In this document: piece after piece, positions 1 through 15,267 of the stretch
How positions within the stretch are numbered: the stretch's first letter is position 1
Layout: each line of letters begins with the position of its first letter
DNA from: a virus
Strand: one strand, 5' to 3'
Virus record (IMG/VR): IMGVR_UViG_3300037882_000065
Coordinates: 1-15,267 of that record
DNA: 15,267 nt
Notes under the pieces: generated by a model
What the model was told of the DNA's origin: nothing
Databases searched by the model: none
Seen by the model: the letters and a program-made list of their open reading frames with translations, nothing else
Position numbers and translations under genes: made by a program

Positions 1-99
1 AAAAGTGCCACCATGAACTTATCGCCGTCGATACGTTGGCCAGCAACAAGACTTGCGTGTTTTCTGTCCGGACTTAAATCGATAGCCATCCAAGTATCC
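1..99. repeat. Terminal overlap copy 1 (identical to 15169-15267); a circular-assembly overlap, not a biological repeat
   Basis: Compared base by base: aaaagtgccaccatgaactt...gatagccatccaagtatcc at 1-99 equals 15169-15267. Both copies are cut exactly by the window ends and lie inside the terminase reading frame. Confidence 0.9.
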
Positions 100-1058
100 T
101 TCTCACGATCAAGCTTAAAGGAATCATCCTTACACTTCTTCCATTCGGCTTCTGAGATGACTGGATTAATCATTGAAACAAACTGGCAAAGGATCTCAGT
201 CCTAAATATATCTTCTCGGTCTGACAAAGAATCTTTAATGTTGTCCTCATGAACCGTGTGGCCTAAAGAGGGGTTACTTTGATACCAAGCCTCTTTATCG
301 TCAACAGCAGCCCCCGGTTCTGCCGACCATTCAAACCATCCAATAGAATCATCTGCCCCAGATGCCGCAGCTAGTCCTCGTTCTCTAAATTTAAGAAGTA
401 AAACCGATCCTGCATGGCCTGCATTGCTGTAGAAATATGCTTGAGGGTTTTTATTTGACATCTGAGTAAATCGCATGCTTGACCAAACATCTTCTGTATC
501 GAATTCGCGTAACTCATCGATGTGAATTACATCCGGCCCTGCTATACCACGCGCGGCTGAGTTTCCTGCTCTAATTAGGTAGCGAGCCCCATTCTTAAAT
601 CTAATCTCTTGGCTTCCCTTAGACTCAAACTTCTTAGCAAAGTTTTCCTGAAGGATATGAGAGTCATCAATCATCTGCCCTACCTTAAAAAAGATTTCTG
701 CTGAGGTAGTGAGTTTGTGAGCTGTAGCAAGGTGCATCTTCTCGCCTAGTCTGTAAATACCAAACAAGATCCGAAGCGCCATAAATGTTGACTTGCCCTG
801 TTGTCTCGGAAGCATGATGCCCACTAGCGGATGAGCCCATCTAGAATCTGCTTTGTATTTCAAGCTCTCGATTGCAAGCAATTCCTGCCAAGGTAGAAGC
901 GGAAACCCGATCTCTTTGCAAAAGTCGATCATCTCTTGCCCTCTAGAAGGTAAATCTAGGCTTGGAGACATGATTCTGGGCGTTTGTGAGCCATAACGCG
1001 GTTCTACTACCCCTTCCTGCGCCCGTGTGAGCCCGATAGAGCCGTTTTCAGCCGTCAT
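1..1058 (-). CDS. terL: Terminase large subunit, N-terminal ATPase part (continues across the circular junction into 14760-15168; full protein 488 aa)
   Basis: Not in the ORF track because it runs off the window edge. Hand translation from ATG 1058-1056 is open down to base 1: MTAENGSIGLTRAQEGVVEPRYGSQTPRIMSPSLDLPSRGQEMIDFCKEIGFPLLPWQELL... Walker A is GIMLPRQQGKST (786-821) and Walker B is VIHIDE (513-530). The frame runs into MAIDLSPDRK at base 89, which equals 15257. Confidence 0.9.
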   Translation of the reverse strand, partial: MTAENGSIGLTRAQEGVVEPRYGSQTPRIMSPSLDLPSRGQEMIDFCKEIGFPLLPWQELLAIESLKYKADSRWAHPLVGIMLPRQQGKSTFMALRILFGIYRLGEKMHLATAHKLTTSAEIFFKVGQMIDDSHILQENFAKKFESKGSQEIRFKNGARYLIRAGNSAARGIAGPDVIHIDELREFDTEDVWSSMRFTQMSNKNPQAYFYSNAGHAGSVLLLKFRERGLAAASGADDSIGWFEWSAEPGAAVDDKEAWYQSNPSLGHTVHEDNIKDSLSDREDIFRTEILCQFVSMINPVISEAEWKKCKDDSFKLDREKDTWMAIDLSPDRKHASLVAGQRIDGDKFMVAL

Positions 1059-1060
1059 GA

Positions 1061-1375
1061 CTAGTTCTCATCCGATTCGAGCAGATAGTGGCTTTCTGTG
1101 GCGTTTTTGGGGTAAAGAGAACCATGAAGGGTCGGTGGTGTCTTAGCGCTCTCAAAAAACCTACCCCCCTTCGATGAATTACATGATTGGCATAATACTT
1201 CTAAATTACTTAAAGCATCACTACCACCTAATACCCTTGGAACTATGTGATCTACAGTAAGACTATCCTCTGTGCCACATCTTTGGCAGCATTGATCTCT
1301 ATTAATTACTGTCTGTCTTATTTTACGCCAAGCAGTAGTAGATCCAGTAGAACGTAGAGCTGATTGCTTAGCCAT
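1061..1375 (-). CDS. HNH endonuclease (terminase-associated type)
   Basis: 104 aa with CCQRCG...DHIVPRVLGG...SNLEVLCQSCNSSKG, an HNH beta-beta-alpha-metal motif with paired CxxC. Its stop is 2 nt before the terL ATG. Its start overlaps the upstream stop as TAATG. Confidence 0.85.
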   Translation of the reverse strand: MAKQSALRSTGSTTAWRKIRQTVINRDQCCQRCGTEDSLTVDHIVPRVLGGSDALSNLEVLCQSCNSSKGGRFFESAKTPPTLHGSLYPKNATESHYLLESDEN

Positions 1376-1815: not shown

Positions 1816-1827
1816 TTATTTACCTCC

Positions 1828-1849
1828 TGTGGATAACTTCTGTGGATAA
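1828..1849 (-). promoter_or_regulatory. Two tandem perfect DnaA-box 9-mers (TTATCCACA on the minus strand), 13 bp apart
   Basis: The plus strand reads tgtggataa at 1828-1836 and 1841-1849. The minus strand reads ACTTATCCACAGAAGTTATCCACAGGAGGT, in the 37-bp spacer between HNH-2 and the transglycosylase gene. The proximal box abuts the Shine-Dalgarno sequence. Confidence 0.5.
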
Positions 1850-1852
1850 GTA

Positions 1853-2308
1853 TCACCATGATTTAATCCTATTTACATGGGCATAATTACATTTAGAACA
1901 AGCTGCAACAAGGTTCTCTAGCTTGTCAATACCACCTTCATGTCTTGGAGTTACATGATCGACAGTATTAGCTTCATCTCCACACCAAAAGCATTGTTCA
2001 TCGTGCATCTTCAAGATAATGCGCCTACGCTGCCTCCAGATTCTTCTATTTGATTCTAATGCAGAAGGGTGCAAGCCAAGCATTACTTCATGGAATACAG
2101 GTAAATTGCTGTAAGTAATCTCTGTTACTGCTTTTCTATGACTAATCACATTTTCTTTCAAATAAGCATGAGTGCTTGGCAATCTCAAAGTAAAGAGTTT
2201 TTGACTTACTGAGTGGTAACTTCTACCAAGATGAGCAGAGCAATGACTGATTCCTTTCAAGCGGTTTGCTTTAAGCCAATCAATGTCAGCCTCTGTCCAT
2301 TTAGGCAT
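1853..2308 (-). CDS. Second HNH endonuclease with an extra N-terminal (possibly DNA-binding) domain
   Basis: 151 aa. The C-terminus reads CFWCGDEANTVDHVTPRHEGGIDKLENLVAACSKCN, an HNH motif. The roughly 100-aa N-terminal region starts WTEADIDWLKANRLKG, which looks like a Myb/SANT or HTH-type helix. The ATG overlaps the upstream stop (ATGCCTAA). Confidence 0.8.
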   Translation of the reverse strand: MPKWTEADIDWLKANRLKGISHCSAHLGRSYHSVSQKLFTLRLPSTHAYLKENVISHRKAVTEITYSNLPVFHEVMLGLHPSALESNRRIWRQRRRIILKMHDEQCFWCGDEANTVDHVTPRHEGGIDKLENLVAACSKCNYAHVNRIKSW

Positions 2309-2893: not shown

Positions 2894-3041
2894 ATTGCCA
2901 AGTTACTACACCATTTACAGAATCAGATGAAATATCCTCTAAGTCTCTTATCTGTACCGGCTCATTACATAACTGACATGGAACGAATGCTGACATAAGA
3001 TCAACCCATTCGCCATTGATCTTAATCCCTACAGTACCCAT
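2865..3041 (-). CDS. Small zinc-ribbon protein (58 aa), function unknown
   Basis: MGTVGIKINGEWVDLMSAFVPCQLCNEP...WQCAKCKAVNG carries two CxxC pairs. I chose ATG 3041, which forms a TAATG overlap with the upstream stop and follows GGAAGTGAG. The track version starts at 3107, inside the upstream gene. Confidence 0.5.
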   Translation of the reverse strand: MGTVGIKINGEWVDLMSAFVPCQLCNEPVQIRDLEDISSDSVNGVVTWQCAKCKAVNG

Positions 3042-3709
3042 TAAATTCTCACTTCCTGTGGACGCCATTTTCCATCGCTTCCCATGCGATACCAATTCGT
3101 AGGGCACTTAGCCTCACCTGTGCGTGGTGCATGACTGCAGAAGTATCCACCCCATGCTCTGCCATTTTTCTCGCCTTCTTTCCAAATTTGGCTGCCATGT
3201 TCGCAAGACGGAACTTGAGCAGCTTCTGGTGTACCCAAAATGTCCTGCACTAAATCAAGCGCCTTCTCTAAGGTAACAGGTGCATCGACTACGCCACGAT
3301 ATTCCCCAACAGGTGTAGTCCAGTAGTCCTGATCATCTGGCTTAACATCTTGAACTGGTGGCTTTACTACTTTTGTAGCAACCACCTTGCTCATTTCCTC
3401 TCGGCTTGGTCTCTTTCCTTTAGCAGCATAACCTGCATTTGCAAGTGCCCGACCGATTGCCGAAGTTTCACAATTCTCCAATGCAGAAGTCTGATTAACG
3501 CCGCGATCAGTAACCTTTTCCTCAGCGAGTCCTGTTGAAAACGCGGAGCTGCATTCAGCAGTCTTAAATAAATACGCTTTGACAATGTATCGATCCTTTT
3601 CACACACTTCCAATTCAGTCGATATGCGAAAATCTGGATAGTCCTTAATAAACTTTTCAAGTCTCACCTCTACTGTCTCGTAATCGGCTAAATTAAACAT
3701 AGAGCTCAT
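3041..3709 (-). CDS. Putative Rad52/Sak-like single-strand annealing protein with a Cys/Trp-rich C-terminal domain
   Basis: N-terminal sequence: YETVEVRLEKFIKDYPDFRISTEL...VKAYLF...STGLAEEKVTDRGVNQTSALENCETSAIGRALANAGY. This resembles the Rad52 N-domain pattern (beta-hairpin then helix, A.E.AET.A.KRAL..FG). The C-terminus reads CEHGSQIWKEGEKNGRAWGGYFCSH...CPTNWY. This is motif-level recognition only. Confidence 0.45.
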   Translation of the reverse strand: MSSMFNLADYETVEVRLEKFIKDYPDFRISTELEVCEKDRYIVKAYLFKTAECSSAFSTGLAEEKVTDRGVNQTSALENCETSAIGRALANAGYAAKGKRPSREEMSKVVATKVVKPPVQDVKPDDQDYWTTPVGEYRGVVDAPVTLEKALDLVQDILGTPEAAQVPSCEHGSQIWKEGEKNGRAWGGYFCSHAPRTGEAKCPTNWYRMGSDGKWRPQEVRI

Positions 3710-4263: not shown

Positions 4264-5013
4264 TCAAGCGTATAATCGTCCATAAAGGGTAAACGATCCG
4301 TCCTTATTTATAGGCACTAGCATAGGGCTTACTCTGTCTCCATGTGTTTCTATGACTGCTACGCTCATCTGCCAATTAGCGCTTCCAGCCTTCAAATAAG
4401 AGGCTTTCTTCTTGTCCATAACATTACCTGCCTCTAGCCCCCATAAAGTCCTGTACGAGGCTCCTATGCCCTCTGTGAAGGCACTAATCCCTGCTCTGTG
4501 GGTATGTCCACAAACCACCGACTTACCAAACTTCTTAGCCAAACCAAGAGCTGTGAGACCGGCATTAGAGTTCATTGAGCCTTCGTCTCCGTGGACTAAG
4601 ACCCATCCTTTGTGAAACTCAAAGGGCTTTTTGTGGAAGCGGATGCCGAGACCTGCAAAGTCCATAAACTTGGCGTATTCAAGCTCTGGTAATCCAATGA
4701 GGCTAGGTGCTCGTAGTAGCGTATGGTAGAGCCTGTCTGTGTGATTGCTGCGAGTGACATCTGTTGTGCCGAGTTCATAGAGAATATCCTGAGCAAGGCT
4801 TCTGTCAGCATCGAGCGTTCCTTCCCATTCTAATTTAGTACCCTGTGCCCAACGACTTTGCGACTGCATGTCAAGCTCATCGCCGGTATTTAGGACTAGG
4901 TCAAACTTCTCGCGCTTTACTAACTTGATTAGATTCTTGACTGCTTGCTCATGATGATATGGGATCTGTAGATCTGAAATCACTAAGTAGCGTTTTTTAG
5001 TCATCGTCCTCAT
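4264..5013 (-). CDS. Calcineurin-like metallophosphoesterase (phosphatase or Mre11/SbcD-like nuclease fold)
   Basis: The ordered motifs are ISDLQIPYHH, NTGDELD, RSNHTD, LVHGDE and VCGHTHR, matching the DxH / GDxxD / GNH / H / GHxH signature set. The alternative start ATG 5004 (MTKK) overlaps the upstream stop. Confidence 0.8.
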   Translation of the reverse strand: MRTMTKKRYLVISDLQIPYHHEQAVKNLIKLVKREKFDLVLNTGDELDMQSQSRWAQGTKLEWEGTLDADRSLAQDILYELGTTDVTRSNHTDRLYHTLLRAPSLIGLPELEYAKFMDFAGLGIRFHKKPFEFHKGWVLVHGDEGSMNSNAGLTALGLAKKFGKSVVCGHTHRAGISAFTEGIGASYRTLWGLEAGNVMDKKKASYLKAGSANWQMSVAVIETHGDRVSPMLVPINKDGSFTLYGRLYA

Positions 5014-5221
5014 CTTCGTAATCGCCGAACCTTTCTGGATCGACTGGGTCTGGCAAGATCCAATGAGGATAGGCTTGAGGCTCTGTAATCATAAACATGG
5101 CTATATCTTCTGCAAAGCCTGCTCTTTTCAAGCTGCAAAAATACTCATAAAGCCCAATGCAGTAAGCATCGAGTTTTGAGTACCCTTGTTCCTCCAGTGC
5201 CTTAGTTGCTTTTCTTGCCAT
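4997..5221 (-). CDS. Hypothetical 74-aa protein with an acidic C-terminal tail (DYEDEDDD); first gene of the early module
   Basis: The ORF fills the gap with no competing frame. Its ATG is directly abutted by a DnaA-box 9-mer. No family recognised. Confidence 0.5.
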   Translation of the reverse strand: MARKATKALEEQGYSKLDAYCIGLYEYFCSLKRAGFAEDIAMFMITEPQAYPHWILPDPVDPERFGDYEDEDDD

Positions 5222-5229
5222 GTGGATAA
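5221..5229 (-). promoter_or_regulatory. Third perfect DnaA-box 9-mer (TTATCCACA), whose last A is the A of the ATG at 5221
   Basis: The plus strand reads tgtggataa at 5221-5229. The minus strand reads GGGACACTTATCCACATGGCA. It shares the 11-mer ACTTATCCACA with the distal box at 1841-1851. Confidence 0.45.
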
Positions 5230-11977: not shown

Positions 11978-12002
11978 TTCCAATTCCTCTCAATAAACGA
12001 CT

Positions 12003-12031
12003 GGGGGAGCGATCGGGAGCAACCGCCCCCC
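12003..12031 (-). terminator. GC-rich hairpin just downstream of the capsid gene (attenuating terminator or mRNA-stabilising stem-loop)
   Basis: The minus strand reads GGGGGGCG-GTTGCTCCCGAT-CGC(T)CCCCC followed by AGTCGTTTATT. That is an 8-bp G:C stem with one bulge and a 12-nt loop, in the 61-bp gap between capsid stop 12045 and adaptor start. Confidence 0.4.
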
Positions 12032-12044
12032 CATGATTAAGTGA

Positions 12045-14722: not shown

Positions 14723-14749
14723 TGGACATATTATACACTATTTGTCCAA
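14722..14749 (-). promoter_or_regulatory. 7-bp perfect inverted repeat (TTGGACA/TGTCCAA) bracketing a TATAAT hexamer just before the portal ATG
   Basis: The minus strand reads CTTGGACAAATAGTGTATAATATGTCCAATGGGA. TATAAT (14735-14730) ends 7 nt before the portal ATG (14722). No Shine-Dalgarno sequence is visible for the portal gene. Confidence 0.25.
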
Positions 14750-14759
14750 GTTTTAGACA

Positions 14760-15267
14760 CTATCCTATCAAAATGTCAACTTCTGTCTCTGCGCGTGTCG
14801 CAAAGTGTGTAACCATGGCTGCGCCTACTGCGCCACAGATAATCCCAGATGCTTTGCGACCCATAACCCATCCGCCATCGCCTCGCTGTAGTTTGACGGC
14901 CGATAGGACTTGCTTATCTAATTCCTCTTGGCCTTCATGGATAATTCGACCACTAGAAACGGCTGAGACGAACTCATCGCAGCTTTGTTGATAATCCTGA
15001 GAGTTGATCTCGTAAACAGGAATGCCTGCTGGCGCTAATCGAGCTGCAACTGCCCCTGCCGTCGATTTTGAATAAGCCACATAATTAACAGGAAACTTTC
15101 GAACCCATGGAGCAATATCGTTTGCCATTTGTTTGTCATCGATCGATACTGGGTTAAACCAAGTCTGTAAAAGTGCCACCATGAACTTATCGCCGTCGAT
15201 ACGTTGGCCAGCAACAAGACTTGCGTGTTTTCTGTCCGGACTTAAATCGATAGCCATCCAAGTATCC
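14760..15267 (-). CDS. terL: Terminase large subunit, C-terminal nuclease part (joins 1-1058 across the circular junction; 15169-15267 duplicates 1-99)
   Basis: The track ORF 14760-15257 begins at an internal Met (MAIDLSPDRK...), but the frame stays open to the window end and is continuous with the ORF at 1-1058. WMAIDLSPD is the usual first acidic motif of the RNaseH-like terminase nuclease. Confidence 0.9.
   Translation of the reverse strand, partial: DTWMAIDLSPDRKHASLVAGQRIDGDKFMVALLQTWFNPVSIDDKQMANDIAPWVRKFPVNYVAYSKSTAGAVAARLAPAGIPVYEINSQDYQQSCDEFVSAVSSGRIIHEGQEELDKQVLSAVKLQRGDGGWVMGRKASGIICGAVGAAMVTHFATRAETEVDILIG
15169..15267. repeat. Terminal overlap copy 2 (identical to 1-99)
   Basis: See the feature at 1-99. 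Confidence 0.9.

Follow-up and report, generated by a model that had tools for sequence, protein, structure and literature searches.

What does a phage genome of some 15 kb, in which no replication genes can be recognised, do with two perfect copies of the bacterial DnaA box placed one behind the other in a spacer of 37 nt? This question is raised by a virus of the IMG/VR collection (IMGVR_UViG_3300037882_000065), and the whole stretch of 15,267 nt that was analysed is called here the window. Since 99 nt are directly repeated at its two ends (1–99 and 15169–15267), the window corresponds to a complete circular assembly of ~15.17 kb (about 15,168 bp). Every gene of this miniphage is encoded on the minus strand, in the order TerL, portal, a prohead-protease/capsid fusion, tail genes, lysis genes and a third, single DnaA box, followed by a 74-aa ORF, a metallophosphoesterase, a DUF6378 protein, a 222-aa protein, a RusA-like protein, a Zn-ribbon protein and an HNH endonuclease and, after this, by the double box, a 146-aa protein similar to aggregation-promoting factors (APF-like), a second HNH endonuclease and again TerL. 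The features that are needed for the argument are the following, in window coordinates:

1..1058, minus strand: TerL, N-terminal part (Pfam Terminase_6N)
1061..1375, minus strand: HNH endonuclease (Pfam HNH, 9e-15) with the cos site in its 3' part (from contig ends)
1126..1137, minus strand: inferred cohesive-end site, the 12-mer CACCGACCCTTC (from contig ends)
1375..1815, minus strand: 146-aa secreted or membrane-anchored protein with an aggregation-promoting-factor C-terminal-like (transglycosylase-like) domain (NCBIfam NF052397, 7.8e-19; PHROG 12661)
1823..1827, minus strand: Shine–Dalgarno sequence GGAGG of the downstream gene, read from the sequence, its first base being the 3' flanking G of box 2
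1827..1850, minus strand: double DnaA box CTTATCCACAGAAGTTATCCACAG, 24 nt, read from the sequence and kept in relatives, chromosomes and phage PR1; box 1 at 1849–1841, gap GAAG at 1840–1837, box 2 at 1836–1828, 3' flanking G at 1827
1853..2308, minus strand: the other HNH endonuclease, directly upstream of the boxes, apparently an insertion
4997..5221, minus strand: 74-aa acidic ORF, whose start codon overlaps box 3
5221..5229, minus strand: third, single DnaA box, filling the 15 nt that separate the lysis cassette from the first non-structural ORF

The TerL ORF is split over the ends of the window, running from 1058 to 1, resuming beyond the 99-nt overlap at 15267 and extending from there to 14760. 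The original prediction that the phage encodes no initiator, helicase, primase or polymerase holds for everything that Pfam, PHROGs and NCBIfam can name in the window, the 222-aa protein and several small ORFs being left without a name. This 222-aa protein (3041–3709, minus strand) has more than 8000 homologues, all of them tagged Pfam PF27148 and none with a nameable function; a sequence search of the PDB gave no match and Foldseek nothing significant, and its AlphaFold model is poor (pLDDT 55), the N-terminal half being beta-beta-beta-alpha and the C-terminal half rich in Cys and His.

Exact copies of TTATCCACA occur three times in the window, at 1828–1836, 1841–1849 and 5221–5229, always on the minus strand, which is the gene strand. 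The tandem pair was confirmed as predicted, with a distance of 13 bp from start to start and a gap of 4 bp (GAAG), and the two boxes, the gap and a ribosome-binding site fill the whole spacer of 37 nt (1816–1852). This spacer is bordered by the TGA of the HNH gene at 1853–2308 and by the GGAGG (1827–1823) and the GTG (1815) of the next gene, and its minus strand reads TGA-TA-CTTATCCACA-GAAG-TTATCCACA-GGAGG-TAAATAA-GTG, while at box 3 the last A is also the A of the ATG (5221) of the 74-aa ORF. Chance does not account for this number of boxes, as had been argued from base composition, since dinucleotide-preserving shuffles of the window gave a mean of 0.14 exact copies and reached three or more in 0 of 200 cases; one-mismatch variants (8 against 3.47 expected) show no excess beyond the three exact sites. 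Moreover, the 9-mer with its flanking G…G is that of the sites bound in E. coli (flanks compared with Table 1 of PMC11317965).

The conservation of the element could be followed in an abundant group of relatives. A search with the portal protein retrieved more than 580 IMG/VR contigs of 14–16 kb with 84–95% identity, which fit the size class of the freshwater "miniphages" of 13.5–15 kb, prominent and uncultured in lake viromes (Kavagutti et al. 2019). Megablast with the window in full as query matched no cultured phage, and the only cultured homologues of the capsid fusion belong to small actinophages, with ~26% identity. The host would be an actinobacterium, judging solely from these distant capsid homologues and from the GC content. 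For the conservation of the boxes, 78 loci were fetched by means of the 146-aa protein (59–86% identity) and thus independently of the motif; the exact 24-mer GTTATCCACAGAAGTTATCCACAG lies just upstream of the 146-aa gene in 63 of them, and another 8 have a version that differs by a single base. Within the 24-mer the mean pairwise identity is 0.99, compared with 0.40–0.65 in the neighbouring blocks of 24 nt, a difference that points to purifying selection on the boxes relative to their flanks. The 24-bp double box is almost invariant in one branch of this abundant family of tiny freshwater phages.

The gene upstream of the boxes varies, being usually the Zn-ribbon gene, whose TAG abuts box 1, elsewhere a methyltransferase gene and in the window the HNH gene, whereas the element stays with the downstream APF-like gene, the first gene 3' of the boxes, whatever lies upstream; the double box co-occurs with this allele class of the 146-aa gene. 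Since the Zn-ribbon gene abuts the boxes in most relatives, the HNH gene at 1853–2308 is probably a recent insertion, and as a query it found no close relative in IMG/VR. It resembles a homing-type insertion that has left the boxes intact, with only the first flanking G changed to C. Box 2 is followed by the Shine–Dalgarno sequence at a distance that varies in relatives from 0 to ~20 nt, and the leader sequence between them is not conserved. The gap is 4 bp in nearly all relatives, one (L147) having a gap of 3 bp, and the variants found include three tandem copies, a single copy, a 12-nt spacing, a single inverted box and a direct pair with an additional inverted box. This variability in copy number and orientation is the behaviour of a cluster of protein-binding sites and not that of a promoter or of an RNA element.

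Additional exact boxes in 26 near-complete genomes are located 7 times on the gene strand and never on the other strand. The context of box 3 is kept in the close relatives L084, L087, L088, L094 and L095 and is absent from most of the family. In relatives at the portal level whose 146-aa homologue is only 27–37% identical, there is no box or a single inverted one, and two of them (L026 and L059, with portals 85–87% identical) contain no exact box in the more than 11 kb that cover the whole early region; the element is therefore dispensable for the family. In the cultured small actinophages Atraxa, Penoan and BonaeVitae, which have the same architecture, TT[AG]TCCACA occurs nowhere in the genome and, thus, the boxes are no ancient feature of this architecture.

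The same 24 bases are found far outside this family. At least 120 bacterial contigs contain the exact 24-mer and, among the matches listed, nearly all are from Actinomycetota with ~70% GC. In these chromosomes (set L165–L284; e.g., L172 4048–4071, L166 2389–2412 and L205 5153–5176) the 24-mer stands among further DnaA-box-like sites, such 9-mers having a density of 4.99 per kb within 300 nt on either side of it compared with 0.13 per kb elsewhere in the same loci, and by their sequence these loci are to be regarded as genuine DnaA-box clusters. Its positions are syntenic, towards the middle or the start of the chromosome. In Streptomyces the 24-mer lies ~45 nt after pheA and ~500 nt before serS and, in all complete linear chromosomes listed, close to the centre. 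The Actinoplanes copy has parS palindromes GTTTCACGTGAAAC and more boxes behind it and lies, in one complete genome, ~10 kb from coordinate 1, and in one Rhodococcus the 24-mer is placed beside crgA, ppiA, trpG and pknB. The Streptomyces locus, in the spacer SCO3961–3962, may be the published D78 cluster, judging from cosmid names; D78 is cited as a datA-like regulator, and a literature search on the 24-mer in Streptomyces found nothing relevant. The concern that many Actinobacteria prefer TTGTCCACA is answered by these loci, because Actinomycetota of high GC content conserve the TTATCCACA pair as well. A metagenome scan for the 24-mer gave 23 matches, and neither among these nor among the genome matches listed is there a low-GC freshwater actinobacterial chromosome.

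Phages unrelated to the miniphages share the module too. The window version CTTATCCACAGAAGTTATCCACAG, with its leading C, is identical in the T5-like Providencia phage PR1 (L427 1200–1223; KY363465 9510–9532), where it sits in the noncoding inner part of a 10.5-kb terminal repeat with a third unit GAAGTTACCCACAG ~50 nt upstream. The exact 24-mer also occurs in unrelated large viral contigs of 28–115 kb and 36–67% GC (L285 2497–2520, L301 7366–7389 and L336 4570–4593).

Taken as a DnaA-binding site, the element is strongly supported by the near-invariant 24-mer, its diverged flanks and its identity with actinobacterial clusters and with a T5-like phage, and it is best described as a high-affinity double DnaA box, a predicted docking site for two host DnaA molecules. 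A universal protein is the only one that explains the same 24 bases in chromosomes and phages of very different composition, which is the reason for proposing host DnaA as the binder, and an accidental equality of a conserved 9-mer with the DnaA consensus is very unlikely (~1e-5). On these grounds it is highly probable that host DnaA binds the 24-mer. The decidedly unlikely alternative is an operator that coincides with the DnaA consensus and is recognised by a different factor, which could be a host response regulator or a protein of the phage; a phage-specific operator had been allowed for in the original prediction. A direct repeat at a gene boundary would suit such an operator, and several small phage ORFs have no assigned function. 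However, the same 24-mer is present in chromosomes and phages of 36–72% GC in which the phage genes in question do not occur, the window yielded no helix-turn-helix protein, a 13-bp period is atypical for direct repeats of the OmpR type, and the agreement with the consensus would have to be the accident just mentioned.

The closest counterparts in a well-studied bacterium are the double DnaA boxes of E. coli (nrdA, DARS1/2, oriC R4 and purH), which are likewise arranged in tandem on the same strand with gTTATCCACAg flanks, the nrdA site gTTATCCACAaagTTATGCACTt being nearly the same string as the phage pair (Stringer, Fitzgerald and Wade 2024, PMC11317965). ChIP-seq in E. coli places DnaA in vivo mainly on such double boxes with a spacing of 2–3 bp, and at purH the insertion of one base pair between the boxes abolished DnaA binding (PMC11317965). 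The phage element differs from them in its gap of 4 bp instead of 2–3, in having two perfect boxes and in its phage context, with binding that is predicted. Nevertheless, the E. coli 2–3-bp rule may not be absolute, since PR1, with an enterobacterial host, has the 4-bp form. Other known examples of strong non-oriC boxes by which DnaA is bound or titrated are datA, DARS, the DBCs of B. subtilis and Streptomyces D78. The actinomycetotal clusters hold the exact 24-mer. Chromosomal clusters have on average ~3 more boxes; a phage genome has 2–3 (in the window 2, plus the single box 3, and 3–4 in some relatives), and therefore any titration by phage DNA would depend on copy number.

The function of the occupied boxes has to be considered together with the ends of the genome. 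Many independent contigs begin with ATGGTTCT… or ATGGTTCTTTTTACCCC…, others end in …AAGACAC or …GCTAAGACAC, and in the window these strings flank CACCGACCCTTC (1137–1126), in the 3' part of the HNH ORF at 1061–1375 and 691 nt downstream of box 2; among the contigs, the interval that separates the 24-mer from the contig end has its peak at 650–850 nt. The phage thus appears to be a cos "miniphage" with this 12-mer as its probable cos site. Since cos would lie inside the HNH gene, this gene would be intact only once the ends are joined and, as HNH spans cos, the packaging genes would be transcribed from upstream across the joined ends. A terminase-binding role similar to that of cosB was considered for the boxes and rejected, as they are ~700 nt from cos and occur in chromosomes as well.

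Tentatively, and with considerable reserve, we favour the reading that the double box acts as a DnaA-occupancy gate or sink before the packaging genes. The boxes stand between the last non-structural gene and the unit formed by APF-like, HNH, cos and TerL, inside a transcription unit and in the orientation of the gene strand, where bound DnaA would form an occupancy-dependent barrier to RNA polymerase passing from the non-structural to the packaging genes. As the phage genome multiplies, each copy would add 2–3 strong boxes and the copies would become a collective sink for DnaA; free DnaA would drop, the barrier would open, and HNH and terminase would be made only after replication. The same sink would at that time depress initiation in the host. 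This reading is favoured because the element travels with the APF-like/HNH/cos/TerL unit and all boxes point with transcription, because neither boundary of the element has a predicted promoter or terminator and the HNH gene spanning cos means reading from upstream, and because DnaA–box complexes have been cited as blocks to RNA polymerase.

Against the gate stand the 4-bp gap, compared with the 2–3 bp preferred by E. coli DnaA, and the relatives with a single inverted box or none, the inverted variants being such that a strictly orientation-dependent roadblock would not explain them. The adjacency to the ribosome-binding site in the window may reflect genome compaction, given that in PR1 and Streptomyces the module does not adjoin such a site. 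A comparable arrangement is that of the stoperators of mycobacteriophage L5, short asymmetric sites in tiny intergenic spacers that are oriented with transcription and bound at ~30 places by the phage's own repressor. The proposed stopping of the polymerase is alike, whereas the binder in the miniphage would be host DnaA, at 2–3 sites.

This reading keeps one part of the suggestion that the boxes are a DnaA-dependent transcription switch at the start of the late operon. A switch is plausible; the placement needs correcting, because a separate, conserved promoter-like TATAAT stands before the structural genes, at the portal, and the boxes precede only APF-like, HNH, cos and TerL. In the spacer before the portal gene (14723–14759), a perfect TATAAT (14730–14735, minus strand) with a TG one base upstream is located exactly 7 nt before the ATG. 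Of the relatives checked, 25 out of 25 keep it at exactly this distance, and many also have a TGTCTAGACA palindrome just before it; the combination looks like a leaderless late promoter with its operator.

Among the other readings, the one that survives best, although it is rather unlikely, is that the boxes help replication by recruiting host DnaA and loading the replicative helicase on phage DNA in the manner of ColE1/pBR322, without an oriC-like unwinding. Perfect boxes recruit host DnaA to foreign replicons in pBR322/ColE1, in P1 oriR and in the stimulation of lambda pR, and in ColE1/pBR322 DnaA at a box loads DnaB onto a loop generated by transcription or recombination. The lack of a recognised initiator, helicase, primase or polymerase suits this reading, as do the strength and conservation of the boxes; a RusA-like resolvase is encoded, which is compatible with recombination-linked replication, and an annealing-protein-like fold is weakly suspected from the low-confidence model of the 222-aa protein. 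DnaA is also an auxiliary at the origin RK2 oriV (PMC11317965). However, the origins named here come with either a Rep protein and iterons or a defined RNA primer, and none of these was found in the miniphage.

The basal unwinding system of oriC (BUS; PMC8287927) likewise has DnaA boxes in tandem and, after them, a short G-rich spacer (GGAGG in the phage), whereas the phage element has neither DnaA-trios nor an AT-rich region, and its gap of 4 bp exceeds the maximum of 3. On the box strand no conserved NTN run exists, a run of three appearing in 29 of 124 sequences without a common register, and there is no set of at least three DnaA-trios ~13–16 nt from the upstream box. The AT-rich unwinding element and the GC-skew switch that would mark an origin nearby are likewise absent, the 40 nt downstream having 51% AT across the family compared with 55% in the window overall, and the skew remaining negative from 1 to ~5500 without a change of sign at 1.8 kb, a weak test in a 15-kb genome with its genes on one strand. 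Iterons or other repeat families are not present near the boxes, and no Rep or initiator family was found. Both an origin of the oriC/BUS type and an iteron origin were thus rejected, and the double box is probably not a classical replication origin; for an origin of the oriC-like kind, the original suggestion finds no support. Box-less relatives such as L026 and L059, and the box-less cultured actinophages, weigh against any replication role, the helper included.

An extension of the gate in which (G/C)TTATCCACAGAAGTTATCCACAG would be a portable, cross-phylum "DnaA-dimer trap", captured or converged on by unrelated phages and used in miniphages as a copy-number timer, is unlikely as a whole. 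Phage DNA would titrate DnaA, shut down host initiation and lift the roadblock before HNH and terminase, with cos being cut only after replication, while in bacteria the module would belong to DnaA-box clusters close to the middle or the start of the chromosome.

A role during entry of the DNA, in which membrane-associated DnaA on boxes ~700 bp from the genome end would pause or anchor the incoming molecule, is very unlikely. T5-like phages are reported to have conserved pairs of DnaA boxes in the injection-stop (iss) region, which is not an origin (Davison, 10.1101/866236; PR1, KY363465); these pairs resemble the phage element in lying off-origin and close to one end of the genome, PR1 has the identical 24-mer in its terminal repeat, and 691 nt separate the boxes from cos. 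In T5-like phages, however, ~8 boxes are carried by inverted repeats, in the large portion of a 10-kb terminal repeat that is not translated, whereas the miniphage, a 15-kb cos phage, has one pair in a 37-bp spacer and neither a terminal repeat, nor a large untranslated region, nor an inverted-repeat scaffold. Moreover, such genes as lie between the boxes and the end are all directed away from any promoter that would already have entered, and the T5 model is itself a hypothesis, proposed for the injection stop signal; in both phages the function is a putative one.

Finally, an RNA-level element (a translational operator or structure) or a core promoter is hardly credible in spite of the position directly 5' of the Shine–Dalgarno sequence, since there is no stable fold (z = +1.05) and no Rfam match, inverted variants exist, the sequence from box 2 to the Shine–Dalgarno is not conserved, a search for hexamer pairs overlapping the boxes, sigma-70-like or of a relaxed actinobacterial type, found none, and no room is left between box 2 and the Shine–Dalgarno; the boxes themselves form no promoter, and the phage promoter that the original prediction had offered as an alternative is correspondingly improbable.

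Pairs of DnaA boxes outside origins were already known, and what is new is their occurrence in an abundant uncultured phage group. For miniphages without recognisable replication genes, the near-invariant predicted docking site of a host initiator is a first concrete handle on replication and its timing. Its presence in actinobacterial chromosomes and T5-like phages suggests an optimal site for a DnaA pair with a 4-bp gap, unpredicted by the E. coli 2–3-bp rule, and the 24-mer connects three groups of non-origin DnaA sites that are little understood.

Some further observations concern single loci. In four relatives (L085 244, L111 1463, L130 1386 and L152 1454), an exact TTATCCACA lies within a coding region (gatcTTATCCACAtcgaaaagg) ~2.5–2.6 kb upstream of the pair, and it could be functional or merely codon-constrained. 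Around the 24-mer of two of the large viral contigs, ORFs of 90 aa or more are absent over 2.5 kb in both directions (L285) or over ~1 kb (L301), and these two contigs have other short motifs in common in this region. In the window, directly after the capsid gene, the minus strand forms a strong hairpin similar to an intrinsic terminator (12002–12033; 14 pairs, 9 of them G–C) with a T-rich tail.
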